Of a DNA stretch of 64,000 nucleotides, positions 2,652 through 58,603 are shown piece by piece. Position 1 is the stretch's first letter. The number at the start of each line of letters is the position of its first letter. Origin of the DNA: Cyanidioschyzon merolae (Eukaryota); NCBI GenBank assembly GCA_000091205.1, contig AP006499.2, one strand, 5' to 3'. The position numbers and the translations under genes are program-made. The notes below the pieces were generated by a model. The model was not told the origin of the DNA and searched no databases. It saw only the letters and a list, made by a program, of their open reading frames with translations.

Positions 2652-2891
2652 GACGAGCAAGCGCTCCAGGCGCTAACGAGTAATCCGTCATTTCGTGCGC
2701 GTTCATGCCTCAAACCAGCGTTACCGATCTTCAGTCCCAGTGTACATTTGCTTTTGCAAACTCGCAGTTACGACGAGCAAGCGCTCCAGGCGCTAACGAG
2801 TAATCCGTCATTTCGTGCGCGTTCATGCCTCAAACCAGCGTTACCGATCTTCAGTCCCAGTGTACATTTGCTTTTGCAAACTCGCAGTTAC
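2652..2891. repeat. Perfect tandem duplication, 2 x 120 bp
   Basis: Unit gacgagcaagcgctccaggcgctaacgagtaatccgtcatttcgtgcgcg...ttttgcaaactcgcagttac occurs back-to-back at 2652-2771 and 2772-2891. It is visible as the duplicated peptide DEQALQALTSNPSFRARSCLKPALPIFSPSVHLLLQTRSY in ORF 2538..2972. Confidence 0.85.
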
Positions 2892-5566
2892 GACGAGCCT
2901 ACTGCGAAAGCGATGTGGCCTCTGGTTGCTCGCCCTGCATGGAAACGCACCTTCGATTTTCTCGCCATGTGACGTTCGATCAGCTCACCACACACCGTAT
3001 CGCGCATCCGACTACGCTCTATAGTCTTCTTCTGTACTGGTTTCAGCGCACGCCCGTACTCGTGGTTCGAGTACGTCGTACTGAATTCATGGATGGGAAT
3101 CGTGCAGCACCGAAACCTGCACGCGTTGGACGCGCTCGTCGAAATGGGCAGCGGCGCAGTATTTGCGAGTTTCAGCCTGTCCCGTGCCAAGGGCTGCTGC
3201 AAAATGACGCAAATTTTTGAGCTACTCCTTTTCCAGCTCGTTGAATAGCAAGGCGAATGTCCGCCTCGTGCCTCCCTACATCCGAAACATTACGAGGCTC
3301 TGGCGCGGTCGGATATACTCTTGCCAAAAGTCGTCGAAACGAACAATTTGGACGCTCATTTACTCACTGAATGCAGCGTACCATACCAATCGTTGCTTCT
3401 CGATACAGTGACGAGAGCGTCGAGATCGGTCCTGCCGTCGTCATGCCACTTGTTGATATGCTTCCTCACGACCACTGGGCCCGAACTTAGATAATATCGA
3501 GGCTCAGAAAAAAAGTCAGGCCGTGGTGCATCTTCAGTACCGCCCGTCGGTTGTTCCACAAAGGTTTGACCGAGGAATTCTGGGGGCATGTGAGCGCCTG
3601 GTAGCACCTCGCCCCGAACTCCGACAATCATCTCACTGACGTTGTACGTCAAGGCAAGTGGGGCCGAACAAGACCTTCCCGAAAAAGAAGCTGCAGAGTC
3701 CTTCATGGCTTCCCGCATCTCACAGTTTTGTAAGATTCTTCCCGTAGATGCGTTTTCGTACGGAGCTCTTGCCAATGATTTCACGCAGATCCTTTCACAC
3801 AGGCCGTTTTGCGTTCACGTACTTTCTCGTCCTCTTTCTGAGCGGATCTTTCTCTTCTTTCTTCTGTGGTTTCTTCACTGTCTCGTTTGCATGATGGAAG
3901 GGCACGGGTGCCGTCGCTTAGCTCTATGTCCGTTTCTCCCTTGGGTCCTAGACGCACTGGATGGATGTTGCGACGGATCTTGGCTTTCTCTATCTTTGTA
4001 TCCACTATACTTCGAGCATCTTTTCGCCAACAACCCCGATGCAAGCACGTCTGCGAACCGAAATGCGCCTTTCCATTCTCTTCTGCTATCGAGCACATAC
4101 GCAACGCCGTTGCTCACGGCTAGTGAGGCTAATGAACGGCTTTCCAGAGAAAAATTCGTCTACGAACGGTGTCACGGATGCGAATGAATCGTCTATGGAT
4201 GCGAAAGCTTACAAACGGCGTTTGACAGCATAGAAGCTGCTTCCGATTTGATACAACCAAGGAGAATAGGCTGCCACAAAGTGCAGATTAACGCCATCAC
4301 CGGCTGTGCGCTCTCTGGCCAGTTTTCGGGATGCAAAGCGACGTAGTCTACGAGCCGGACAGAAGACCACCGGAAGAAGAACCCGCAATGCGCTCCGATG
4401 AAGGAAGAGGCGTCAAACGATCCCGTCTGTTTGGGGATGATTCGGTGAGCAAACGACAGCATCGCCGCTCGGGCTGATGTCGCTTTCATTCCCGCTTGTC
4501 TTTTCTTTACGAAGAGCGGTGTGCCGCTACTCTAGGACCCCAACACAGGTCTACCATTTCTCCGGAATGAAGTCAGGTCGACTAAAACGAACATCCGTGC
4601 CACGTGTCGTCAGCGTTCGTGTTCCAGTACGAATTCGCTGGAGTGCGCTTCGTCAGCGTGCGATGCGCTCCCGAAGAAGCGCGCGTCGTTCTTCGCCTAT
4701 CTGCATCGCTTCACCACTGTTCGTTATCAAGGGTATGGAAACGTTGCATGCATGCTGTGGGTTTTTGGTAGTATTTCATAGAGAACGGATGCAGTGGCAT
4801 TGCCTGGCGAGGAAACTGTTGTATATATTGATTCTGATGAGTTCGAGTTCGATTGCTTGACGCTGAGCATATCGCCTAAGCGAACGTTCCTTCATCAACT
4901 TGCTGAAAGTTCAGTAGCTGATTCGTAAGAGGATGACCTGTTTCCGCAATCAAGCAGCAACAGCATAAAATCTTTCCACATTCTCACTCCATTCCGAAGG
5001 ATACAGTTATTTTGTTGCATACCTGCGAAGAAATAAACCAGGACAAAAAGTATATTCTGGTTGAGGTATTCTGGTACCACCGATTATGAGCGTAACGGTA
5101 GCGGCAGCGCGTCCGTGGGCATCGCCGCTGTCGCTCTTCGAACCGACGCCCTTTGTGGTTCGGCACTGCCGTTCTGTCTCCGTGCAGCGACCGCACCGGC
5201 GCTACAGGCGCTATTGCTGCCGGTTTCGGCAGGCTCGGCACACGATAGGGCGTATGAAACGACCAGAATATCCGAGATGAAGTATAGGTCATGTAACCTG
5301 AGAGTAGGAGGTTGATGGCTACCTCACCGCACACTGAAAGAAAAACACACACAAAGAAAATAAGAAACGAAAAATGCGCATAATCGGAGAACGCTGGCCT
5401 ATGGAAACGTTTTGTCCATGAAAAGAAAATGTGCCGCTGTCGCTGCGATCGGGTTGAAGGGCAGCGCGCCGGCGGCGGCGGCGGCAGCGCCAGCGACCCT
5501 AGACACTAGTCATAACCTCGCCGCTGCTGACATCATTCTATTGCCGCTGCGGCCTTTCAGAGCTTT

Positions 5567-13300: not shown

Positions 13301-14356
13301 AGCGCATTCCTCTTGGAGACGCTGCTCGCGATCCCGCAGAAGCTGTAACTGCTTTTGCAACTGCAAGCTCTCCTCGGATGCTTTTCTGTACTCAGCATCA
13401 ACTTGACTGTACTCAGCAGTGATGCGAGTAAGCAGTCGCTCCAGATCTTGGGTTGTTTCCGTGAGTTCTTTGCCGAGTTCGCGCCATAAACGATCACGTT
13501 CCTCAGTCCGGATTCGGATTTCGTCACGCAGCGCCTGCAACTGCCGGCGCCGTTCGACCTCCTTTGCACGCGCTTCCTCAAGCTCTGTGACCGCTCGTAT
13601 TTTCTCACTCAGTTCCGTTTCGAGGGTCCCCAGCGAATTCGACCATTCGAGGCATTGGGCTTGCATGCTTCGACAGTTTCGTTGCTTTTGCTTCAGGTTT
13701 TCGAGGCGATCCCGCCAACGCTCTAGTTCCGAATGCAGAATCTTGAGTTCGGCGAGCTTCTGCTGCGCACACTTCTGAATCGCGATGAGGGCTTTTGCGT
13801 AACCGCGTGCCTCGAAAATATCGTCGAATTTTTCCTTGACTTTCTTCGGATCTTGCAACGGCCATAGGGACTCTTCTTGATGAACGAAAATCACGTTCTC
13901 TAGAACCGCCTGGCGCACACCAAGAAACGCTGGAGCCATCGCATTAATGTCATTGCATCGGTTTGAGGTTTTGATGTGCTGTCCGTCCTTGTCCCGAATG
14001 CTGAGGCTTGTCTCCACGGTGCTGAAACTCTGTTTCCCAGCAGTTGTGAGCCGAAGCTGGAGCTGGCGGTTCACGGTAATCTGTCGACCAAGCGCGTCTT
14101 CAAATAGCAGGCGAATTTTGGCCTTCGTTTCCTTGCTTTCACGCAAACGTGGATCGTGCACAAAAGCGGCGCCTTTGTCGACGAGCGGCGGCAACTCGCC
14201 AGTCGTTGCCAAGCGCAGGCACTCCACTATGGTAGTCTTTCCGGTGCCGTTCGCCCCCAGTATGACGGTTATCGGCGCCTGGAAGCGTAGGCGTTGCTCT
14301 TCATCCGGACCGAAACTCCGTACGCCTGAGAAGCCTAGTTTGATCAGACGTGACAT
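10388..14356 (-). CDS. RAD50: DNA double-strand break repair protein Rad50
   Basis: About 1322 aa. N-terminal Walker A ([20 protein letters not shown]...[29 protein letters not shown], cf. human MSRIEKMSILGVRSF...GPNGAGKTTIIECLKY), long coiled coils, a zinc-hook CPLCDR (...[12 protein letters not shown]...), and C-terminal signature/Walker B/D-loop ([42 protein letters not shown]...ILITHEERF). The ORF track starts at a GTG at 14362, and the first ATG is at 14356. Confidence 0.92.
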   Translation of the reverse strand: [1322 protein letters not shown]

Positions 14357-14440
14357 AAACACACGAACAGGCGACCTTTCTCGCGCCTAAACGACAAACG
14401 TTGCTGCGGTCGACAGCATCGTAGTGGCGGCGAACGCGCC

Positions 14441-16704
14441 CTATCCAAGACGTCTCCAACTGATGTGCAGACGCGTCCCAGTCTTTTCGGACCGGCCACC
14501 TACTAATGCATTCGACTTCTTCTCGTATATATCCATCTTGACAGATTGTCCCACAAAATGCTCTCGTGTCAATTCGGGAGGTCTCGTCTCCAGCACCGCA
14601 CATCTTATGTTGATTGCGGCATTAAAACGTCGGTTCACGAACTCCATATGTTTCTTGCCGTTGCTTTTAGAACTCACTCATGCACGTGGCCCTTCAACTT
14701 TCATCCTCCTTTCCATTTGCTCTTCCGTCAGCGCTCCGTACTTTTCTATATCTTCAGGGCTCAGCTGACACTTTTCCATCTCGACTCTCTGAAGTGTGCA
14801 CCCCGTTCATGGTGTGTATACGATGTTCGAAACTCATCTATCGGTATCGTAACGATACGCCTGGCGCATTCCTTGTACGTTTTTGTCGACGGAGCTGGCG
14901 TAGTCCCTTTTTTGGACGCCCTGCTGCATATGCTTCTACTAGCCTTTGACTCTCGTCCTCCGTGAAAGCGCTCAACTGATTGAAAAAGTTGGCGAATGCA
15001 CGCTGCTTCCTACAGTACATGTTCATACGCTGCCGAGCCGGCCGGGGCGTGGTACACTCTCCTCACAGCACATCCCAATGAGCAACGCGAACTTGTATGA
15101 ATTTCAGAAAAGCCTCAAAGTTCGCGCCGCGGCTCGTCACCTCGCTCAAAGCTTCCAGGTGCTCTTTCACTCCTGCATGCCATGTCTCACTTTTCTTCCT
15201 CGCATTCATGATTCCCGATTCTCGATAGAATCCCGCTCTCGAGAATCTCAAAAGACGCACGTCTTTCTGGCGCAAGTTACCGTCGATGCTCTCTTCCATA
15301 CGCTTCGGTGCTGCGATGGTTCTGATTATCGTGTGTTCCCATGGTCCGAGCCAGTGACAAAATCGTTACCCTGAACTTTCTGCGTCACTGGATCCGCCTT
15401 TTTGTTTTCTTCATGCTTCGTCATGGGCGATATCGAAGACGTAACTGGACGTTTCGCCTTCAAGCGCCGATAGTGTACGCACATGGCTACTCCATCGGTT
15501 TCGATTATCCCAGTGAATACCTTTTGCTTGCTTACTTTGAGTCGTTTGAAATCGAAGGTATTCTTCCAGTAGGTCTCCCGGTTTTCACCGGGGAACTCCG
15601 TGTTGCTTTCATCGAACTCCGGACGGATCTCCTTCGTGATGCTGTAGAGGACTCTGGAGTCGATGGTCACAAAATTTGACTCGATGTTGCACAACGGAAC
15701 GCAATTGAAGCGCTTCCCCATTAGGAAAGCCTTACGTCTCTCCCACTCTTCATTGTTTTTCCTTACTCAGCTTCATCTCCGCGTTGCGTTCTAGTTCTCG
15801 GTTCAAAAACATGAAATATCGCAAGACGAGGCGATTGTATCTTTCCTTATCTTTTTTTCAACTCTGATATCTTTTCCGCTGGACTCGCCAGCCCCAGTAC
15901 CGCACGGTGCTCTTGTATAACCGCACGGATTACGGAAGCTTCATTTGTGCCCTCGTTTGACGCCTTCTTGTCGACGAATTCGACCTCATCTTCATGCTTG
16001 GGATCCTTCGTGATGCCATTGATAATCGCCCACATTCCTTTGCGAGAGATGCCAGGGTACAGCGCAAACACGGCGCGTATCATGAAATGTTCGAGGTTCA
16101 CTGTGAAATGGTTCTTCAGGTTCGTGATGTACTTCATCGCTCCGTAGGTGTAAATATCCGCTTCACCCTTGTATCGAGTACCGTTGAAGCGGTATTCGGC
16201 GTAATTTTCGTGAACGCCATGCACTCGCTCATTTCTCCTCGACGGTTCCCCTGTACCAAGCATCAGGTGACGAATAAAGGTCTTGTCGAAAAACTCGTAC
16301 GGAACCTCGTCTGTTTCCATGTGCGTCACGTCGCGATACATCTCCTTTACGAAATGCAGCAGTCCTGACGATGCCTTTACAATACTCATGGGGTACGAGT
16401 CGACACGGTTTCTGATGGCGTCTCGCAACTTTTGCCTGCAGAGATCCTTGATATGCCCAAAAAGACAGGCTTTCACCACCATCTCGTCGTTGTGTCGTCT
16501 TTCGTGCGGGTTCTGACTTCGGGCTTCCCTGTTTTGCTTCTTCGTCTTGTCTTGTTCCTCTTTGCTCCGCCATGTTTTTCGTTGTCTCCGGCAGCCAGTG
16601 ACATTTAGCCTCCAGGTCCTCAACTTGCTTTTCCATAACTTTCTTGTATTTATTTTGGAAAGGAACGCACGTAGAACGCTTCTGCTACAAACGGCGAAAA
16701 TCAC
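14441..16704 (-). pseudogene. Degenerate Fanzor/TnpB-like nuclease ORF (copy 1), multiple frameshifts plus in-frame TGA
   Basis: Minus-strand ORF pieces 15847..16704, 15326..15721, 15063..15299, 14838..15026 and 14441..14677 concatenate into one protein homologous to copy 3. Motifs: [10 protein letters not shown] (RuvC-I-like GxDxGxT), YKECARRIVTIPIDEFRTSYTHHE (cf. TnpB V-x-V-NPAYTSQTC preceding the zinc finger), and ...KHMEFVNRRFNAAINIRCAV (TnpB RuvC-III ADxNAAxNIlrrG, but the catalytic Asp is Arg in this copy). There are two frameshifts around 15722-15846 and an in-frame TGA before the RuvC-III segment. Confidence 0.6.
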
Positions 16705-16913
16705 TTGAATGAGCTTACTTGAGGGTTGGAAAACAATTCAGCTGAAAAACTATACTTTGCTATTACTTGAACGCAAATACAACTTTTACGGTAGAACAAC
16801 ACGCAAATATTCAGGATCGCGTTTCCCTTCAACGGCGAGATACTCCTCCTGTCTCATGCCTGCCAGATATCCCAGGTGTGCGTATCGACCACGCTATATA
16901 GAACAAATAACAG

Positions 16914-17568
16914 AGACTAACGATGAACTAGCAACGATATAAATATTTATTCCCCCTAGATGAAACGTTAAAAACGGTAAAGGCTTCCCGTACTGTCGAA
17001 AGTTTACCTTACAGGCGGAGGGTCCCGCGAGCCGGGCGACTCTGCTGGGCTGGTGCCCGGTGTGCCTCTAAAGTGGCAGGTGCTGTGGCGAGACCTGAGC
17101 AACTCGTCCGAAACGCAGTTCAAGCTGGAATAAGGGGCATTTGGCCTGCGTTTCAGCGTCGCCCCGGTCGCAGTGGACTCCCAGCATATCGCTTCGCGCT
17201 GCCGCAGACAGTATGTCTGTCCGCGTAGCTTGCAGGCTCCCCGAATAATTATGTATTCCGACCTCGTGTCGAGTGCACCACGCCTCGAGTCAACGCCCGC
17301 AGCGGAACAGCAAAGCCGTACAGTCTCCGGGATATATCTGCTCTGGCGGTTTTGGCGCCACCGCGGGGGCCGCAAGGCAGGCACTCAGCACACGATAGCG
17401 TGTACAAAACGACCCGTATACTCGGGAGGAAGTAAAAGCAATGGAACTTGAGGGCAGGTGCTTCATGATGGACGCCTTTTCGATTACCACTATCCATCCC
17501 GCAATCTGGGATCCATGGTCGATGGAGACGAATTTTGTCATCGGAAAAAATCGATCGCCATCCCATCG
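16914..17568. repeat. Repeat A (655 bp), the 5' non-coding module of the Fanzor-like element; near-identical direct repeat of 18844-19497
   Basis: About 99% identical to 18844-19497, with only a handful of substitutions and one 1-nt indel by eye. A roughly 80% diverged homologue lies at about 55925-56550 inside copy 3. Confidence 0.9.
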
Positions 17569-17781: not shown

Positions 17782-18384
17782 ATGCAGAGACCTTTGGTTG
17801 CGCTGAAGATCGTTCTCGTGGGCAATAGTGCAGTGGGCAAGTCATCTCTCTTGCTACGATTTGCGGAAGGCACGTTTGCGGAACTGCCAGCCACAGTAGG
17901 CGTAGACTTTCGAGTGATCTCACTGGAAAACGTCCAGGGCTATCGTGTCAAACTCACCTGCTGGGACACCGCGGGACAGGAAAAGTTTCGCACCCTGACG
18001 TCATCTTATTATCGCGGTGCACACGGTGTTATTATGGTGTACGGTATAGATGATCCAGAGTCGCTGAAGCATCTTGAGACAGCTTGGCTAGAAGAAGCGA
18101 GACGGTATGTGAATAACCCAAACGCTGTTTATATGATAGTGGGCAACAAATCGGACCTGCCGACTGCTGTGGTGCCCAGGGCAGACGGGCGGCGACTCGC
18201 TGAGCGTGTTGGCGCACTCTTTCTCGAGACAAGTGCAAAGTCAGGTTCTGGAGTATCGGAGTGCTTTGTAGAGCTTGTTGCACGTATATTGGAGGCACAA
18301 CCCCATGTAACAGGTGATGGCGAGCAAGCAGGAGTTCAACTGGAAGCCGGTCCGTATCATGAAACAGCCTCATGTCTTTGTTGA
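17782..18384 (+). CDS. Rab-family small GTPase, Rab18-like
   Basis: LKIVLVGNSAVGKSSLLLRFAEGTF...VGVDF...WDTAGQEKFRTLTSSYYRGAHGVIMVYGIDD...VGNKSDL...ETSAKSGSGVSECFVELVARILE and a C-terminal CLC prenylation motif. This matches the Rab18 pattern GVGKSSLLLRF / [27 protein letters not shown] closely. The ORF track begins at 17677, and I take the Met at MQRPLVALKIV as the start. Confidence 0.8.
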   Translation: MQRPLVALKIVLVGNSAVGKSSLLLRFAEGTFAELPATVGVDFRVISLENVQGYRVKLTCWDTAGQEKFRTLTSSYYRGAHGVIMVYGIDDPESLKHLETAWLEEARRYVNNPNAVYMIVGNKSDLPTAVVPRADGRRLAERVGALFLETSAKSGSGVSECFVELVARILEAQPHVTGDGEQAGVQLEAGPYHETASCLC

Positions 18385-18843
18385 TCATCGCCGAGCTGAG
18401 CATCGCGCTGTGCACACTAGACATGATTCGGAAGCGATGGACCTGGATTTCGAGCCGAGTGGGGAGGCTCTGCAGCTGAATAGCACCAAGCTTGTAAAAT
18501 TCTCCTAACAACATACATATTTGCAGACATTAGGTAGTGCACAATTTGATGACCCGCACAACAGCGAGTTTGCGGTATGTCTCGAAAATCCAGTGGGCAT
18601 GTGCAGAGATACACATATGAGGTACAAGGCAAATTCCACAAGAATCCGACGATGCGTCTCAAGTGTACGGATTGTTTGTCCACGTCATCGGTGCATAAAG
18701 AAGCCGCTACACGGCACCGTGACGCAAAGACAGGTATCACACCGACGCTTTCAGAAAAGTACACACTTTGCGTAGCGCATTGCTGCGCGTCTTTCCAAGG
18801 TCCAGCGAAACCGAATCGAGCCTAGATCGAGGTGCACAGCAGG

Positions 18844-19497
18844 AGACTAACGATTAACTAGCAACGATACAAATATTTATTCCCCCTAGATTAAACGTTA
18901 AAAACGGTAAAGGCTTCCCGTACTGTCGAAAGTTTACCTTATAGGCGGAGGGTCCCGCGAGCCGGGCGACTCTGCTGGGCTGGTGCCCGGTGTGCCTCTA
19001 AAGTGGCAGGTGCTGTGGCGAGACCTGAGCAACTCGTCCGAAACGCAATTCAAGCTGGAATAAGGGGCATTTGGCCTGCGTCTCAGCGTCGCCCCGGTCG
19101 CAGTGGACTCCCAGCATATCGCTTCGCGCTGCCGCAGACAGTATGTCTGTCCGCGTAGCTTGCAGGCTCCCCGAATGATTATGTATTCCGACCTCGTGTC
19201 GAGTGCACCACGCCTCGAGTCAACGCCCGCAGCGGAACAGCAAAGCCGTACAGTCTCCGGGATATATCTGCTCTGGCGGTTTTGGCGCCACCGCGGGGGC
19301 CGCAAGGCAGGCACTCAGCACACGATAGCGTGTACAAAACGACCAGTATACTCGGGAGGAAGTAAAAGCAATGGAACTTGAGGGCAGGTGCTTCATGATG
19401 GACGCCTTTTCGATTACCACTATCCATCCCGCAATCTGGGATCCATGGTCGATGGAGACGAATTTTGTCATCGGAAAAATCGATCGCCATCCCATCG
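18844..19497. repeat. Repeat A' (solo copy of the element's 5' module), direct repeat of 16914-17568
   Basis: Near-identical to repeat A. It is not accompanied by the Fanzor-like ORF and lies between the Rab18-like and p23 genes. Confidence 0.9.
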
Positions 19498-41698: not shown

Positions 41699-41858
41699 GC
41701 AGGTGCCTCGCGTAACGAGTGCTGTCCAGGGGTTGCGTTGGCGCCGGTGTGCTCATGTCCATGAAGCGATTTGCTGGACGGTGTGCATGATTGTACTGTT
41801 ATGTACTGTAATACAAAGTTTGTACGGAATGCCGGCTTTACGCGCACTGGGGCTGCCT

Positions 41859-42126
41859 CGCGTGCCCTGATCGTGGCCCTTGGCATGCAGAAACTGTACA
41901 GAAACGGATTTTGCTGCCCAGACATGTCGCGTGCCCTGATCGTGGCCCTTGGCATGCAGAAACTGTACAGAAATTCCTTTTCCTGCCCAGACATGTCGCG
42001 TGCCCTGATCGTGGCCCTTGGCATGCAGAAACTGTACAGAAACGGATTTTCCTGCTCAGACATGTCGCATGCCCTCATCGTGGCCCTTGGCATGCAGAAA
42101 CTGTACAGAAATGCCTTTGCCTACCC
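41859..42126. repeat. Minisatellite: 69-bp unit x about 4 (units start 41861, 41930, 41999, 42068)
   Basis: cg[c/g]tgccctgatcgtggcccttggcatgcagaaactgtacagaaa[cggattttgctg/ttccttttcctg]cccagacatgt repeated head-to-tail, about 90% unit identity. It lies between PRA1 (-) and the DGAT1-like gene (+). Confidence 0.9.
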
Positions 42127-50379: not shown

Positions 50380-50770
50380 ACAAGTGACGGAGAAGAACAA
50401 GAAGGGAGATAGGTGAGAAAATGTATTCGTCCGAAGTGACGATGACGAGACTTTAGTGTCACAGAAGACGCGAGTTCTAGGAATCCTCCTATCGCTGAGT
50501 TCAACCAACGGCAGGAAACGCATTGAGTTCGTGAACCGAGACTTTAATACCGCCATCAATATCAGACGATGTGTGGCGTTGGAGACGAGTCCCGAAGAAC
50601 CAAGGCAATGCAACTTCATGATGCAGCCTCTGACGCTCGTCGTACGACTGGATACACCGAGGCCGATAGCAGGCGGCCGGGGGAAAAAGACTGCGAAGCG
50701 TTTGCGGAACAGTATGTATACACTTACCGTTCAGGATCTTAGGGCGTTGTCCGTTTTCACTCATCACATA
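50380..50770 (+). mobile_element. Truncated 3' fragment of the Fanzor/TnpB-like element (copy 2), plus-strand orientation
   Basis: Plus-strand frame reads RVLGILLSLSSTNGRKRIEFVNRDFNTAINIRRCVALETSPEE, homologous to copy 3 RVKFRGLLAMESATSCNKKWMEFVNRDFNAAINIRRRAVMERR. Downstream, the conserved tail aggcggccgggggaaaaagactgcgaagcgtttgcgg matches the rc of the copy 1/3 tails (gtaggtggccggtccgaaaagactgggacgcgtctgcac). Confidence 0.5.
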
Positions 50771-52513
50771 TTGCAGAGCGTGGTATTTCAAGCCTGCACA
50801 GCGATCAACATTTCGGCTAAAAATCGAAAGGCAAACATCGCGCGAGCTCCATGGTCCCCCAGTTTCGTCTCGTACGAGTGTAGACACGTCCTCTGGACTT
50901 GATGCAGAAGCAGCCGATATCGATAAGCGACACCTGTACAGCACTTGGAGCCTCACGTGTTCTGGTTGAAGCTGATCGTGCACATGTCCACGCATCTTGC
51001 TAGAGAAGGCATCATCGAATAGATTTTCACCGCATCCATACACCTGCTCAGATGATGCAGGTTCTCCATGAGCGTGCATCTGTGCTGCGCAGACACATCG
51101 CGTCTCGAAAAGAAACACAGGCGCTGCAATCAAGTGCGGATCTGAGGATTGCTGGACAACACGAATCGATGCAGGACCTCGGAGCCATTAGCTCGCAGTT
51201 CAGATTCGGGACCCAGCGACGGCTTGTACCGACATCGATTACCGAAAGATATGTGCATGGCGATAGCTAGACTCGGAAATGCAGGAGGAATCGGTATGTG
51301 ACGTTCTGGAGAACGACCTGAAGCGGAATCGAATCATACCAATGTCTGAAGAGACTCTTGTCGAACGGCGGTCCAGTATGACGTGTCACGGGTATGCAAG
51401 ATCATCACGTGATTGGTTTCTTGTGCAGATCCATTGAAAATATCGCATGGAGATGAAGAGCGAGCGTAAAGAGGCAGCCATGCATCAGTCGAGCGCAGGC
51501 CACGAGCGCTACCCTGGAAGGCCGGGTCGCCGACGCAGCACCACAAGCTGCACTCCACGCCTGGCAGCCATTCTATGCCAGTTGGTGCAACATCGCCAGC
51601 ATCCTGGCTCATGGGCAAAGTCTCGGTTGCATAGTGATGTCCAGGCGAGCCGGATTCGCTGATCGCCTCCAGCTGGCAGTACCAGACGCCGATGCGACGT
51701 GTAGCGCCCTGCATGGAAATGCCCAATCCATAGACATTTTGCGAGTCTCCAAATCGCACCGGGAAACATGTCCGCCGTTTAGGGTTCTGTATTTTTCATG
51801 GGGCGTGCCCAGTGTGTCGAACCTGAGCCCCCTGGACGTGTGATTCCTAACTGCGACCAGTAACGCATTCGCGGTTCGAATAGAGAGCTTTTGGGTTTTC
51901 ACAGAGCCCGGGCATGTGTCACACAGCCGGAAATGTGGTATGCATCCACTTTGCGACGTTCCAGGATCCAGAACATGCCATTGGCGCTTGCTGCGATGCA
52001 TTGCTCTGTAGCGCCACCGCGATCACTGTCCAGGGACAGCGCCGCTTTTCGGTGCTCCAATGGAGGCGTCGGCTCGAGGTAAATTCCTCTGTATTGGAAG
52101 CAAGCAGCGTAGATTCTGTGAAATGCCTCCATCGTGACGCTACGGCCGTTCAAGTGCGCTCCGCTCCTGACGCGAATCCCTATTCGGTATGCATCCGTGG
52201 ATTCCCAGTTGCGAATCGCGTCAGCTGCGGTTCCACTGCATCACACCTCTCAAAAAGTGATCGGGGTTTACGAATGGGCGTTTTTGGCCAGCGATAACAA
52301 GCTGTTGAGATTCATACGAATGCATCCCGTTCTTCAGTCCTGGGGCTCATAGTGAACATTCAGCGAGTGCCCGGTGCCAGGTACGGAAGCCAAGGACGGT
52401 CGAGTCGGCAACCAAACGCGCTGCTTTGAAGGATCCACTCGCCGAATGAATCGTCATCAAATCGCATTCCAGTTTTGATGTCGTTGCCGTCTGAGTCGAC
52501 GCTTTACGACCGA

Positions 52514-53371: not shown

Positions 53372-53467
53372 ACCTCGAGCCTTCAATCCTATGCAGGTAT
53401 ACGCTGCGTTGCCTGCGTAATGTCGTAGTAACCGTGAAGCTTGTCGTGGAAAAGTGCAGCACCGACA

Positions 53468-56400
53468 GCGAACGCCTTTCAAAAGAAAAACGCTGCCGCC
53501 GGCAGCGTACAGCCGTGGCGAAAAACCCGCCCTCGACAAGACGTCTCCAGCTGACGTGCAGACGCCTCCCAGACTTTTTTGGACCGGCCACCTACTACTG
53601 GTTTCAACTTCTTCTCATATAATTCCACCTTGTGAAGTTCCCCATAAAATTCTCTCTCGTCAAGTACGCAAGTCTTCTTTCCATCACCGCCCTTCTCCTG
53701 ATATTGATAGCGGCATTAAAGTCGCGATTCACAAACTCCATCCATTTCTTGTTGCAGCTGGTAGCACTTTCCATTGCAAGTAGTCCTCGAAATTTAACCC
53801 TCCTTTCCATTTGCTCATCTGTCAGCGCTCCGTACTTTTATATATCTTCAGGACTCCGCTGGCACTTTTCCATTTCGACCCTCTGAAGTGTACACCCCAG
53901 TTCATGGTGTGTATGGGACGTTCGAAACTCATCTACAGGTATTGTAACAAAACGCCTTGCGCACTCCTTGTATGTTCTTGCCGTTGGAGCTGGTGTAGTC
54001 CCTTTTTGGGTCTTCCAGCGCCCTGCTCCGTACGCTACTAGGAGCCTCTGACTTTCATCCTCCTTCAAGGCACTCAACTGATTGAAAAAATTCGCGAATG
54101 CACGCTGCTTCCCACAATACAAACTCATTCGCAAACGAGCCCACCGGGGCTTGCTGTACTCCTCCCACAGCGCATCCCAATGGGCGATGCGAACTTCCAT
54201 GAATGTCCGAAAAGCGTTAAAGTCTGCTCGTCGGCTCGTCACCTCGCACAAAGATTCCAGGTGATCCTTCATTCCTGCATTCCATGTCTCGATTTTCTTC
54301 CTCGCATTCATTATACCAGATTCTCGATAGTATCTTGCTCTCGAGAACCTCAAAAGACGCTTGCCTTTCCGACGTAAGTGTCCGTCAGTACCATCTTCCG
54401 CGCGCTTGGGTACTGTGATGTTTATTATATTCGTGTTTGCGGGGTCCGCGCCACCGACAAAATCGTTGTTCTCATGCACTTCTTGCGTCGCAGGATCCGC
54501 CTCTTTGTTTTCTTCAAGCGCCGATAGTGTACGCATATGGATACGCCATTGGTTTCGATTATCCCAGTGAATACCTTTTGCTTGCTTACTTTGAGACGTT
54601 TGAAATCGAAGGTACTCTTCCAGTACGTCTCCCGATTTTCACCGATGAACTCTGTCTTCCTTACATTGAACTCCGGACAGATCTCCTTCATGATGCCGTA
54701 GAGGACTCTGGAGTCGATAGTCACAAAATTCGACTTGATGTGGCACAATGGAACTTCGTTGAAGTGCTTCTCCAGAACCGCAGCCTTCCGTTTCGCCCAC
54801 TTTTCATTTTTTTCCACACTCAGTTTGATCTCCGCTTTGCGTTCGACTTCTCGGTTCAAAAACATGACATAGTGCAGGATGAGGCGATAGCGTCTTTCTT
54901 CATCTTTTTTCATATCTAGTACCTCTTCTGCTCGATTCGCCAGCCCCAGTGCCGCACGATGCTCATGCATAACCGCACGGATCACAGAAGCCTCATTCTT
55001 TCTCCTGCGCGATGTCTTCTTGTTTACAAATTCGGTCTCCTGTTCGTTTTTACTAACGTTCGTGACGCCATCGATGATGGTCCATATCCCTTTGCGAGAC
55101 AGGTCCGGGCGGAGTGCGAACACGGCGCGTATCATGAAACGTTCGAGGTTCATCGTGAAATGATTCTTCATGTTCGTGAGGTACCTCATGGCCCCGTGGG
55201 TGTGCATATCCGCGTCACCCTTGTATCGAGTACCGTTGATGCTACAGAAGATATATTTTTCGTGGAGGGCGTGCACTAGCTCATTTTCACTCCGCATATC
55301 CCATGTGCCAAGCATCAGGTGACGAATAAAGGTCTTGTCAAAAAAACTCGTCCGGAACCTCGACTGTTTCTGTTCCCGTCACGTCACGATACATCCCCTT
55401 CACCAAATGCATTAGTCCCAAAGAAGCCTCACGAACACTCGTGGAGTACGAGTCGACACGATTTCTGATGGCCTCTCGGAAATCTTCCTTGTACGGATCC
55501 TTGATATGTTTAAGAAGACAGGCTTTCACCACTATCTCGTCGTTGTGTCGTCTTTTGTGCAGCTTCTGACGTCGGGTCTCCCCGTTTCGCTCCTACGTCT
55601 TCTCCTGTTCCCCTGAGCTCGGCTCTGATTTTCGTTTTTTCCCAGCAGCCGGCGGCACTGGGCCTCCAAGATCCTTTACTTACATCTCCAAAATTTTTTT
55701 GAAAGAGCACGCTCTTTGAACGATTCTGCGATAAAGCGCGAAAAAACACTTGAGTAAACTAAACTGAGGGTTCAAAAACGATTCAATTGAGAAACTATGC
55801 CACGACTTCAACACAAATACATCTTGTACGGTAGAGCAAGAAGACAATGAGTAGAATCGCGTTTCCCTTCAACGGCGAGAAACCAATACTGTCTCATGCC
55901 TGCCAGGATGGAGGTGCACGTATCGACCGCGCTATATAGAACAATGAAGAGAGACTAACCACTAACTGGCAACGATATGAGAAGTTCGTTCCCCCTCTAT
56001 GATAAACGTTACAAGTGGAAGGCTTTCCATGTTGTCGAAGGTTTACGTTCTAGGTGGAAGGTCCCTCGAGCTGGACGAATCTGCCGAGCTTGCGCTCCGT
56101 GCGACTCTGAAATGGCGGCCACTGTAGTGAAATCTGTGCAACTCATCCGCAGCGCAGTTTACTCTAGGACTCGGAGCGAGTAGAATGCATCTGGGCGACG
56201 CCAATGTTGCAGTTCTCTCCTAGCGTGCCGCTTCGCGCTGCCGCAGGCAGTAGGTCTACCGGTCCAGTTTGCAAGCTCCCGGAATAATGATAAACCCTGA
56301 CCCTGTGGCGGGTCGACGACGACTGGAGCGGACGCCGTCAGTGGTATGGCACAGCTCGTCTTTCTTCGTGTTGTAAAAGCACAAGTAGTATAGGCGGTCT

Positions 56401-56560
56401 TGCGGGTGGAGCTATGCAGGCACTCGGTGCACGATAGAACAAACGAAACGACCAGTTTCTCCCAGAGAACGTATACATCATGGATCCTAAAGGTAGCACA
56501 TATCGTGAAGGAAGCTTCCCTGAATGCCAGTATCCATGGTCAACGTAAACATTCTTTCAA
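53468..56560 (-). mobile_element. TnpB/Fanzor-like element, copy 3 (3' tail + degenerate ORF + diverged repeat-A-like 5' module)
   Basis: Colinear homology with 14373-17568 over the entire length, including the non-coding 5' module (55700-56550 vs 16700-17560) and the 3' tail. It fills the IMPase(-)/CBS-domain(+) intergenic region. Confidence 0.6.
53604..55749 (-). pseudogene. Degenerate Fanzor/TnpB-like nuclease ORF (copy 3); RuvC-III Asp retained, one nonsense codon and at least 2 frameshifts
   Basis: Pieces 55338..55532, 54425..55315, 53838..54536 and 53604..53810 (-). Motifs: [18 protein letters not shown] (RuvC-I-like), YKECARRFVTIPVDEFRTSHTHHELGCTLQRVEMEKC (TS-motif plus degenerate Zn-finger), and MEFVNRDFNAAINIRRRA (RuvC-III D-x-NAAxNI-RR). 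There is a TAA after ...SPEDI where copy 1 has GAA (EKYGALT...). Confidence 0.6.
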
Positions 56561-58470: not shown

Positions 58471-58603
58471 CAAAACTGATGCTATGTGCTCCACATCGCC
58501 GCTTTGACCTGCGCAAGTTGTACCGTATTCGCAAATAGCGCTCAAAACTGATGCTTTGTGCTCCACATCGCCGCTTTGACCTGCGCAAGTTCTAGCGTAT
58601 TCG
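58471..58603. repeat. Duplicated 60-nt motif (2 copies separated by 11 nt)
   Basis: caaaactgatgct[a/t]tgtgctccacatcgccgctttgacctgcgcaagtt[gtac/ctag]cgtattcg at 58471-58531 and 58543-58603, about 260 bp downstream of the CBS-domain gene stop. Confidence 0.75.

Follow-up and report, generated by a model that had tools for sequence, protein, structure and literature searches.

The right end of a decayed CMe-1A transposon in Cyanidioschyzon merolae as a candidate source of Fanzor1 guide RNA

In a 64,000-nucleotide stretch of the Cyanidioschyzon merolae genome (hereafter, the window), we read a region previously flagged as a possible guide-RNA scaffold as the right end of a decayed CMe-1A transposon, whose non-coding tail would act as the guide scaffold in active members of the family; we put the probability of this whole explanation at roughly 55%. 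By analogy with characterised Fanzor systems, the right end of copy 1 may once have encoded the scaffold of a nuclease guide RNA. The window itself offers little new biology, the family having been known since 2013; the useful gain is a corrected annotation, which now has the true stop codon in place and adds a C-terminal extension of 36 codons, the boundary of the right end, a tail motif and a terminal hairpin (Table 1).

Table 1. Positions of CMe-1A copies, their parts and neighbouring features in the window.
Feature	Position	Strand	Remarks
Copy 1, whole CMe-1A	14359-17568	-	5′ module, core with broken ORF, and tail
Copy 1, 5′ module (TE-N2_CMe)	16913-17568	-	equal to TE-N2_CMe
Copy 1, core with broken Fanzor1 ORF	about 14441-16704	-	several frameshifts and stops
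Copy 1, RuvC-III motif codons EFVNRRFNAAINI	14606-14644	-	catalytic D to R (NRRFNAAINI; family consensus NRDFNAAINI)
Copy 1, C-terminal extension, 36 codons GQSVKMDIYEKKSNALVGGRSEKTGTRLHISWRRLG	14441-14548	-	3′ part of ORF 14441-14677, ending in TAG 14441-14443
Copy 1, quoted sequence	14435-14503	-
Copy 1, true non-coding tail	14359-14440	-	~82 nt; candidate omegaRNA/fRNA scaffold region, degraded in this copy
Copy 1, small GC hairpin GGGCGCGTTCGCCGCC	14426-14441	-	GGCG/CGCC stem, variable loop
Copy 1, version CCACTACGATGC of the tail motif CGCCACTACTGTAC	14416-14427	-	motif nearly invariant in the family
Copy 1, terminal long hairpin region and last ~11 nt of element	14359-14415	-
Rad50 ATG	14354-14356		2-5 nt from the right end of the element
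TE-N2_CMe standing alone	18843-19497
Copy 2	50456-50830	+	old 5′-truncated remnant
Copy 2, quoted sequence	50668-50707	+
Copy 2, tail remnant CTTAGGGCG...	50738-50753	+
Copy 3, CMe-1A	53459-56456	-	75.5% identity to copy 1
Copy 3, early stop	53604-53606	-	made by a 1-nt deletion
Copy 3, quoted sequence	53526-53595	-
Copy 3, tail	53459-53532	-	intact 21-bp terminal hairpin

CMe-1A copies in the window and their protein

Judged by sequence comparison, the repeats in this C. merolae 10D window are copies of CMe-1A, a family of transposons that encode the eukaryotic TnpB-like RNA-guided nuclease Fanzor1, first described in 2013 by Bao & Jurka (PMC3627910). The assignment was made against the published description (PMC3627910). 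The host is C. merolae, and a Rab protein encoded in the window is identical to XP_005538123.1 of C. merolae 10D; the element is ~3 kb long, occurs in many copies with ~75–80% identity between them, and has no terminal inverted repeats (TIRs), none being found in a search between both ends of the window copies and of an intact copy from elsewhere, L001. Also, the 5′ ~650 bp of the element constitute a separate repeat, TE-N2_CMe, for which the published figure is 635 bp (PMC3627910). At the level tested, we saw no difference from CMe-1A, and we therefore place the copies in the same family. The family counts ~150 genomic copies, besides >300 metagenomic relatives. The 2013 account predates RNA guidance and is silent on the 3′ tail, the hairpin, the right-end boundary and the C-terminal extension.

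The window copies are pseudogenes and the system is dead in the window, because both full-length ORFs are multiply disrupted, and copy 1 has lost its RuvC-III aspartate to mutation and carries an insertion that breaks its terminal hairpin. In copy 3, the ORF has been hit by a frameshift, a stop codon and two deletions, of 49 nt and 1 nt, and copy 2 retains only the RuvC-III motif, the C-terminal extension (as protein-level similarity) and a barely recognisable tail. Introns were ruled out as an explanation for the frameshifts, because the lesions are copy-specific and consist of point stops, indels in homopolymers and a 49-nt indel that lacks GT..AG. When the window was searched for additional ‘ghost’ tails with the invariant motif, only that of copy 3 emerged. 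Nearly all copies are pseudogenes across the family as well, and nothing in our analysis shows that any CMe-1A copy is still active.

The TnpB/Fanzor call made earlier for the protein was correct, as seen by comparing an AlphaFold2 model of the intact family member P0001 (pLDDT 66, pTM 0.43) with solved Fanzor1 structures. The model has the TnpB/Fanzor fold, a fold defined by WED, REC, split RuvC and zinc-finger/TNB domains, and matches SpuFz1 (9ceu_P/8gkh) with an E value of 1.9e-14 and TM scores of 0.53/0.63, as well as PpFz1 and GtFz1 (E 1e-12 to 2e-11); the Cas12 family came below these Fanzor1 matches, at E > 0.05 only. The RuvC motifs GADPGNTN, VDEFRTS and NRDFNAAINI are present in the family, and residues D484, E656 and D725 are invariant in an alignment of seven proteins, comprising full-length or long family members and distant relatives. 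Pfam searches with the ORF pieces and intact relatives returned nothing useful, only a weak precomputed DUF8286 assignment, and a profile search against PDB sequences gave no match, so that membership in Fanzor1 rests on fold and motifs.

The end of the reading frame and the right end of the element

The sequence-only reading had quoted one sequence from each copy as a conserved tail, placing that of copy 1 at 14373-14445. All three sequences are real and homologous, but they lie at other positions (Table 1): the interval shares just 11 nt with the copy 1 sequence and covers instead the stretch from the copy 1 stop to the end of the element. The block had further been described as non-coding and beyond the ORF stop, which is true of copy 3 only, because the 1-nt deletion there brings an early stop. 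In copy 1, as in the consensus of 41 non-redundant members, the block is coding and supplies the final 36 codons of the ORF, GQPLKVELYEKKLEAVVGGRSKKTGRRLHVSWRRFV followed by the stop. In the frame of this extension, 43% of single-nucleotide differences from the consensus are synonymous versus 24% expected (p = 1e-15), an excess confined to the coding frame, with 25% and 16% synonymous in the other two frames versus 21% expected. Proteins of distant relatives continue into ..FVGQPLVHRVGKTLRR, and the likeness of copy 2 within the block lies mainly at the protein level (AGGRGKKTAKRLR versus VGGRSKKTGRRLH). The quoted block is thus conserved because it is coding sequence.

Beyond the stop codon, homology among the 41 non-redundant copies reaches about 11–12 nt past GGCGTT and then turns to noise, a drop in information content that was measured in 36 copies. 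All copies lose similarity at the same point, which therefore marks the right end of the transposon. The tail of copy 1 had been thought to end 20–45 bp from the Rad50 ATG; family-wide homology instead carries it to ~14359, 2–5 nt before that codon. Copy 3 ends ~88 nt before the ATG of a gene for inositol monophosphatase, and both copies are co-oriented with the gene they precede. A look-up of the Rad50 protein for an empty insertion site in other strains gave no record.

Such positions raise the idea that CMe-1A right ends sit, or are retained, just upstream of co-oriented host genes, which we consider improbable; if true, a DNA-repair gene would now take its 5′ UTR or promoter from the tail of a dead element. 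A related proposal, that the Fanzor mRNA has the tail as its 3′ UTR, the hairpin and a U/G-rich tract serving 3′-end formation or stability, or that in copy 1 the tail is now the 5′ UTR or promoter of Rad50, appears very unlikely to us. The tail does lie directly 3′ of the stop codon, GUUUGUUGUUG does come after the hairpin, and the two right ends do precede host genes on the same strand; however, this arrangement is absent at L001, whose neighbouring gene lies on the opposite strand, and the invariant motif of the tail would go unexplained.

Conservation, folding and covariation in the tail

The tail had also been held to be better conserved than neutral sequence, which our measurements do not support. 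The post-stop tails of copies 1 and 3 are 81% identical, an ordinary value for the element, as 32–41% of same-length windows within it are at least as similar between these two copies. Per-site diversity across the 41 copies is 0.32 in the non-coding tail, comparable to the 5′ non-coding part (0.27–0.35), versus 0.13–0.22 in the ORF and 0.15–0.28 at third codon positions; conservation in the tail falls below that of the ORF, even when only third positions are considered. The last 150 nt of the ORF showed none of the unusual synonymous-site conservation that an overlapping RNA would predict.

Within the tail, a 14-nt motif, CGCCACTACTGTAC, stands out, with most of its columns at least 90% conserved in the family alignment and the exact 14-mer present in 24/90 fetched loci. 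This motif is able to pair with GCAGTAGTGG, ~85 nt upstream and inside the coding extension. The resulting long-range helix appeared in 21/41 single-sequence folds and also when the intact copy L001 was folded, and showed no covariation in the 41-copy alignment. The stem proposed by the sequence-only reading, CGTCTGCA/TGGAGACG, likewise exists, with 7/8 pairs and 82% pairing family-wide, but does not covary. The suggested RNAalifold analysis of the tails, run on a MAFFT alignment, gave a weak consensus of −4.8 kcal/mol, in which the covariation term was −0.2. Two hand-built candidate structures, holding the proposed stem, the long-range helix and the CCGGUC/GACNGG, AGAC/GUCU and GGCG/CGCC hairpins, had 85.8% of cells paired versus 85.3% in shuffles (23/500) and 85.5% versus 85.8% (419/500), respectively, and none of their helices covaried above shuffles. 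The stem of the small GC hairpin was 94.5% paired in the 41 copies, with one A-U compensatory case and no excess over shuffles. The comparison with curated RNA families, also suggested earlier, returned no match for the whole window with Rfam 15 at gathering thresholds, and a permissive Rfam scan of the L001 tail gave chance-level matches only (E about 9–10).

Over a longer region, the 157-nt fold of copy 1 had z = −0.89, and the tail of L001 reached −62.3 kcal/mol with z −2.47 (3/200 shuffles equally good). On average, the 154-nt tail segment folded at −57.6 kcal/mol, versus −32.2 for an equal length of upstream coding sequence, and stability had no relation to the intactness of the ORF (Spearman rho ~0).

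Among the helices tested, only the terminal hairpin, which is G·U-rich, shows compensatory maintenance, its strands co-varying between lineages. In copy 1 this hairpin folds poorly (−11.4 kcal/mol, z +0.5) because of a 9-nt insertion; the family mean is −17.0 kcal/mol (z −1.8), copy 3 reaches −28.2 kcal/mol (z −5.6), and flanking DNA gives −11.0 kcal/mol (z −0.2). Across the 41 copies, pairing each strand with its own partner yielded −19.6 kcal/mol versus −16.3 kcal/mol with swapped partners (permutation p = 5e-5), a result unchanged without the outlier L067. Since this first version split each hairpin at the loop of its own fold, which could favour ‘own’ pairs, the comparison was rerun with fixed halves and a flank control; with fixed halves, p was 2.5e-4. 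The effect was seen in hairpin type A (p = 0.0014) and for the upper stem (p = 1e-4), and was null in hairpin type B, for the lower stem alone and in the flank control. In addition, over 53 nt the sense strand folds more stably than the antisense strand by 5.9 kcal/mol, with no asymmetry in the flanks, the p-values of this sense/antisense comparison being overstated because the 41 copies share ancestry.

These results bear on whether the tail has had any function, present or past, beyond membership of a repeat. Were shared ancestry the whole account, with hairpins produced by chance or by mutation, for example through local inverted duplications, one would expect the ordinary identity between copies 1 and 3, a diversity equal to that of the 5′ non-coding part, helices that mostly do not covary and copies that are nearly all pseudogenes, and the perfect 15-bp hairpin of L067 could itself stem from one inverted-duplication event. 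Yet most columns of the 14-nt motif remain at least 90% conserved while adjacent loops vary freely, the own-versus-swapped difference is significant without L067 and with fixed halves while the flank control is null, and the z-scores of the hairpin are clearly unlike those of flanking DNA; we regard a functionless tail as improbable.

Readings of the tail and comparison with known systems

Fanzors have been known to be RNA-guided since 2023. Known Fanzor guide RNAs originate downstream of the nuclease stop codon, in the interval up to the right end of the transposon (PMC10432273, PMC10530073). [quoted passage not shown] The CMe-1A tail runs from the TAG to ~14359, with variable flank directly after it, so that by analogy its position and structure fit an omegaRNA/fRNA scaffold. 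The scaffold proposal of the sequence-only reading is thereby moved: the quoted block is coding and its stem is without compensatory change, whereas the unquoted tail has both the motif and the co-varying hairpin. In active members, a transcript through the 3′ end of the gene would be processed into an omegaRNA/fRNA, with the tail as scaffold, possibly beginning within the C-terminal coding extension; pairing of GCAGUAGUGG in that extension with CCACUACUGU could close a three-way junction. A guide of ~15 nt would be copied from host DNA just beyond the right end, and the ribonucleoprotein would then cut matching empty sites.

A single-stranded DNA transposition signal fits the terminal hairpin with its strand asymmetry equally well. 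Under this alternative, which we think possible though somewhat unlikely for the tail as a whole, a mobilising enzyme would recognise the 3′ end by the hairpin and the invariant motif, which would not be an RNA scaffold; comparable structures occur in Helitron/Helitron2 elements, with their 3′ hairpin, and in IS200/IS605, with subterminal hairpins. Strand-specific hairpins with G·T pairs would suit single-stranded DNA, CMe-1A lacks TIRs (see also PMC3627910), and across the family the 3′ end is constant while 5′ modules vary between locus groups, resembling the one-ended, 3′-anchored Fanzor1-carrying Helitron2 elements of Chlamydomonas. The left end of the core also carries a GC hairpin, GCGCTC-GGT-GAGCGC, replaced in another group by GCGCG-GTCGATA-CGCGC, and a T-run precedes the 5′ boundary of TE-N2; the heterogeneous 5′ junctions yielded no transposon-adjacent motif (TAM). 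However, neither the element nor the window showed an HUH or Rep/helicase gene, the 3′ terminus is not of the CTRR type, neither 5′ boundary has an asymmetric terminal repeat matching the invariant motif, and all Fanzor1 proteins characterised in the literature use RNA from exactly the position of the tail.

A signal in DNA and an omegaRNA are compatible and not mutually exclusive. In bacterial TnpB elements, one right end serves both transposition and the omegaRNA. The TIR-less, hairpin-ended, 3′-anchored architecture of CMe-1A might therefore mean that its terminal hairpin has a dual role, although we give little credence to the specific proposal that a single hairpin acts in a eukaryote both as a rolling-circle-type signal and as the last stem of a guide RNA.

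For the reading of the tail as a guide scaffold, the corrected annotation defines a concrete construct with which a red-algal Fanzor1 could be tested, namely an intact copy, e.g. L001/P0001, together with about 200 nt of its native 3′ sequence and a ~15–20-nt guide. In L001, a TAA at 5257-5259 stands where a CAA would let P0001 include the 36-codon extension. C. merolae is genetically tractable and thermo-acidophilic, and an active CMe-1A ribonucleoprotein could therefore be of practical interest.

CMe-1A resembles three known systems in different ways. As with the TnpB omegaRNA (reRNA) of IS200/IS605 elements such as ISDra2, the template of the candidate RNA overlaps both the nuclease gene at its 3′ end and the right end of the element, the guide would by analogy come from flanking DNA, and the element ends carry hairpins, not inverted repeats; unlike those elements, CMe-1A is without a TnpA (Y1) transposase, has a eukaryotic host and gave no Rfam/covariance-model match. 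Like the Helitron2-type non-autonomous Fanzor1 elements CRe-1, CRe-2 and CRe-3 of Chlamydomonas (PMC3627910), it carries a terminal hairpin on the 3′ side and has hairpins at both ends, keeps its 3′ end intact while the 5′ ends vary, and has T-rich sequence at the 5′ junction, but in CMe-1A no asymmetric terminal inverted repeats were found and no Rep/helicase relative was seen.

The third system is the SpuFz1 omegaRNA of Spizellomyces punctatus (Saito et al. 2023, PMC10432273; Xu et al. 2024, PMC11423790). Protein identity between SpuFz1 and CMe-1A is just 14–15%, and the SpuFz1 element has inverted repeats that are spanned by the scaffold whereas CMe-1A has none; also, a 7-bp SL1 is reported for three Fz1 omegaRNAs, compared to 4–5 bp in the first (small GC) hairpin of CMe-1A. 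Nevertheless, the two share the protein fold (E 2e-14), the candidate RNA of CMe-1A likewise falls in the interval from the nuclease stop to the end of the transposon, its non-coding part of ~82–95 nt is similar to the 75-nt scaffold, and it too would have a stem-linker-stem layout followed by variable flank.

The repeats as copies of CMe-1A

Self-comparison of the window from Cyanidioschyzon merolae, a nearly intron-free red alga whose Rab GTPase in this stretch is identical to that of C. merolae 10D (XP_005538123.1), recovered two long repeats, 75.5% identical to each other over 3 kb, and a short remnant. Conceptually translated, the repeats encode a ~660-residue protein in which GADPxNTN, VDEFRTS and NRDFNAAINI motifs can be read; the ORFs of both long copies are broken, by lesions that differ between them (homopolymer frameshifts, a 49-nt indel, in-frame stops), and the RuvC-III aspartate is mutated in copy 1. 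A protein search returned 66 relatives, nearly all from JGI metagenomes, and scanning of metagenome contigs turned up 315 loci that encode such proteins, 80 of which were fetched. One such locus, L001, encodes P0001, a 752-residue ORF without internal stops or frameshifts. Pfam and PDB sequence profile searches did not recognise the protein; the AlphaFold model of P0001 matches solved Fanzor1 structures, SpuFz1 foremost (E 1.9e-14, TM 0.53/0.63), then PpFz1 and GtFz1. In P0001, the linker before RuvC-I (residues about 375–471; L001 4120–4400) carries 3–4 tandem ~25-residue units (KHEExKEAxPATQxVQDNDLVVDA), modelled as disordered (pLDDT < 50), and the number of units differs among family members (P0001, P0008 and P0011 compared).

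Neither the element in the window nor its kind is new. The repeats are exactly the CMe-1A family described in 2013 by Bao and Jurka (PMC3627910), a ~3-kb element without terminal inverted repeats (TIRs), present in about 150 C. merolae copies each ~80% identical to consensus, with 5′ 635 bp that are 95% identical to the separate repeat TE-N2_CMe. This sharing is seen here too, the 5′ module of copy 1 being 98.6% identical to a solo copy. The two form a 655-nt direct repeat flanking the Rab GTPase gene, and the solo copy matches TE-N2_CMe. Three tandem repeats in the window are unrelated to the observation examined here.

CMe-1A copies and other features of the window
Feature	Position	Strand	Basis or remark
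CMe-1A copy 1	about 14359–17568	-	Self-comparison, ~3-kb repeat
CMe-1A copy 3	about 53459–56456	-	Self-comparison, ~3-kb repeat
Copy 2, short remnant	50456–50830	+	Self-comparison
Fourth TnpB/Fanzor-like remnant, very diverged	3011–3511	-	29% amino acid identity to RuvC half of copy 3, 171 residues
Quoted block, copy 1	14435–14503		
Quoted block, copy 3	53526–53595		
Quoted block, copy 2	50668–50707		
Consensus TAG in copy 1	14441–14443		
Rad50 ATG	14354–14356	-	Same strand as copy 1
Inositol monophosphatase ATG	about 53371	-	Co-oriented with copy 3
Core left-end hairpin	about 16860–16895	-	
5′ module of copy 1	16913–17568		
Solo copy of 5′ module	18843–19497		
Weaker fragment of this repeat	5228–5317		
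Rab GTPase gene	17782–18384	+	
Tandem repeat	2652–2891		120 nt x 2, 100% identical
Tandem repeat	41858–42126		69 nt x 3, 92–95%
Tandem repeat	58471–58603		72 nt x 2, 95%

The coding C-terminus and the tail beyond it

The sequence-only reading had proposed a conserved non-coding block at 14373–14445 as a candidate scaffold; the strings it quoted do exist in three copies, but at other positions (see table). In an alignment of the 3′ ends of 41 non-redundant copies (<97% identical), the consensus frame runs past the stop of copy 3 as GQPLKVELYEKKLEAVVGGRSKKTGRRLHVSWRRFV, ending at a TAG in the context GTCTAGGGCG, which has its counterpart in copy 1; the frame of copy 3 is shifted by a 1-nt deletion, and in P0001, which looks intact, the CAA of the Q codon has become TAA. 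Differences from consensus in this 36-codon block are 43% synonymous versus 24% expected (p 1e-15), resembling the RuvC-III region (49% versus 21%), and 25% and 16% versus 21% in the other two frames. Because of the consensus frame, this synonymous excess, the preservation of the block in copy 2 mainly at the protein level, and the distant relatives, which likewise run on beyond the same glycine (..FVGQPLVHRVGKTLRR), the block is the coding C-terminus, and the specific evidence offered for a scaffold is coding sequence.

Nor is the tail unusually conserved, as had been supposed: after the stop, copies 1 and 3 are 81% identical, and 32–41% of same-length element windows are at least as similar. 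Per-site diversity across the 41 copies is 0.32 in the non-coding tail, compared with 0.13–0.22 in the ORF, 0.15–0.28 at third codon positions, 0.19–0.20 in the last 120 nt of the ORF, 0.27–0.35 in the 5′ non-coding region and 0.60 outside the element.

Anatomy and folding of the tail

Following the TAG, the tail consists of a GGCG/CGCC hairpin with a variable loop, an invariant motif (CGCCACTACTGTAC, with most columns ≥90% conserved while neighbouring loops vary freely), a long imperfect hairpin of lineage-specific sequence (CGUCGUUCGA-CUU-UCGAACGGCG or AACGUUUUUC-UUUU-GAAAGGCGUU), and about 11 weakly conserved nt (UGUUGUUGSUG) able to pair with the 5′ foot of this terminal hairpin. In the metagenome locus L067 (2400–2440), the usual terminal hairpin is replaced, at the same position, by an unrelated perfect 15-bp GC-rich one (CCGGCGAGCACGCGC/GCGCGTGCTCGCCGG, −36 kcal/mol). 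Information content falls to noise 12 nt past GGCGTT, which marks the right end of the element. The right end of copy 1 lies 2–5 nt from the Rad50 ATG, the one oddity worth noting; it follows that Rad50 must have its entire 5′ UTR and its promoter within this dead copy. Copy 3 ends roughly 88 nt upstream of the inositol monophosphatase ATG.

The tail of the intact L001 copy folds to −62.3 kcal/mol (z −2.47), with a 10-bp long-range helix (GCAGUAGUGG/CCACUACUGU) closing a three-way junction, then the terminal hairpin. Shuffled sequences fold as well as the window copies do (z −0.9 and −1.4), RNAalifold gave only −4.8 kcal/mol, and two candidate structures had as many pairs in shuffled controls as in the real alignment, so that the long-range helix, the small hairpins and the stem originally proposed are without covariation support.

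In one tail helix, compensatory changes appear to have preserved pairing in the transcribed strand. The terminal hairpin has a mean z of −1.8 versus −0.2 for its flanks, and its sense strand is the more stable of the two by 5.9 kcal/mol, an asymmetry absent from the flanks. Its 5′ halves average −19.6 kcal/mol with their own 3′ halves versus −16.3 when swapped with other copies (p 5e-5; 2.5e-4 with fixed halves, 1e-4 for the upper stem); the test was not significant for one lineage variant (type B) alone or the lower stem alone, and the flank control was null.

A probable scaffold template or a possible transposition signal

The main rival explanation, compatible with an omegaRNA, is that the tail acts as a DNA-level transposition signal. 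Consistent with this, the element has no TIRs, its core left end also bears a GC hairpin, its 3′ end is constant while 5′ modules vary among groups of loci, and the TE-N2 5′ junction comes after a T-run, traits reminiscent of Chlamydomonas Fanzor1 elements of the Helitron2 type. At the core left end (loci L001–L081) the hairpin reads GCGCTC-GGT-GAGCGC, replaced by GCGCG-GTCGATA-CGCGC in the group with the window copies. Upstream of it, at least four groups of loci carry unrelated 5′ modules, one an inverted TE-N2 piece, and the element therefore looks 3′-anchored with variable 5′ parts. Distant relatives on metagenome contigs (L082–L089), which share 37–39% identity with the window protein, are preceded by a gene for a DDE_3 (Tc1/mariner-like) transposase; they sit inside ~28–30-nt TIRs (TATACTCTG...), with a ~185-nt tail from stop codon to inverted repeat. 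Such a setting agrees with Fanzor1 being known to associate promiscuously with different types of transposon.

The original observation was partly right, and the scaffold interpretation is plausible, if unproven. Taking the compensatory helix together with position, size and layout, we consider it probable, with a confidence of about 0.55, that the CMe-1A tail is the template for the family's omegaRNA/fRNA scaffold; in this window the tail is a relic. The Fanzor RNAs that have been characterised come from the stretch separating the stop codon of the nuclease from the transposon right end (PMC10432273, PMC10530073), and in position, size and overall layout the CMe-1A tail fits that pattern.
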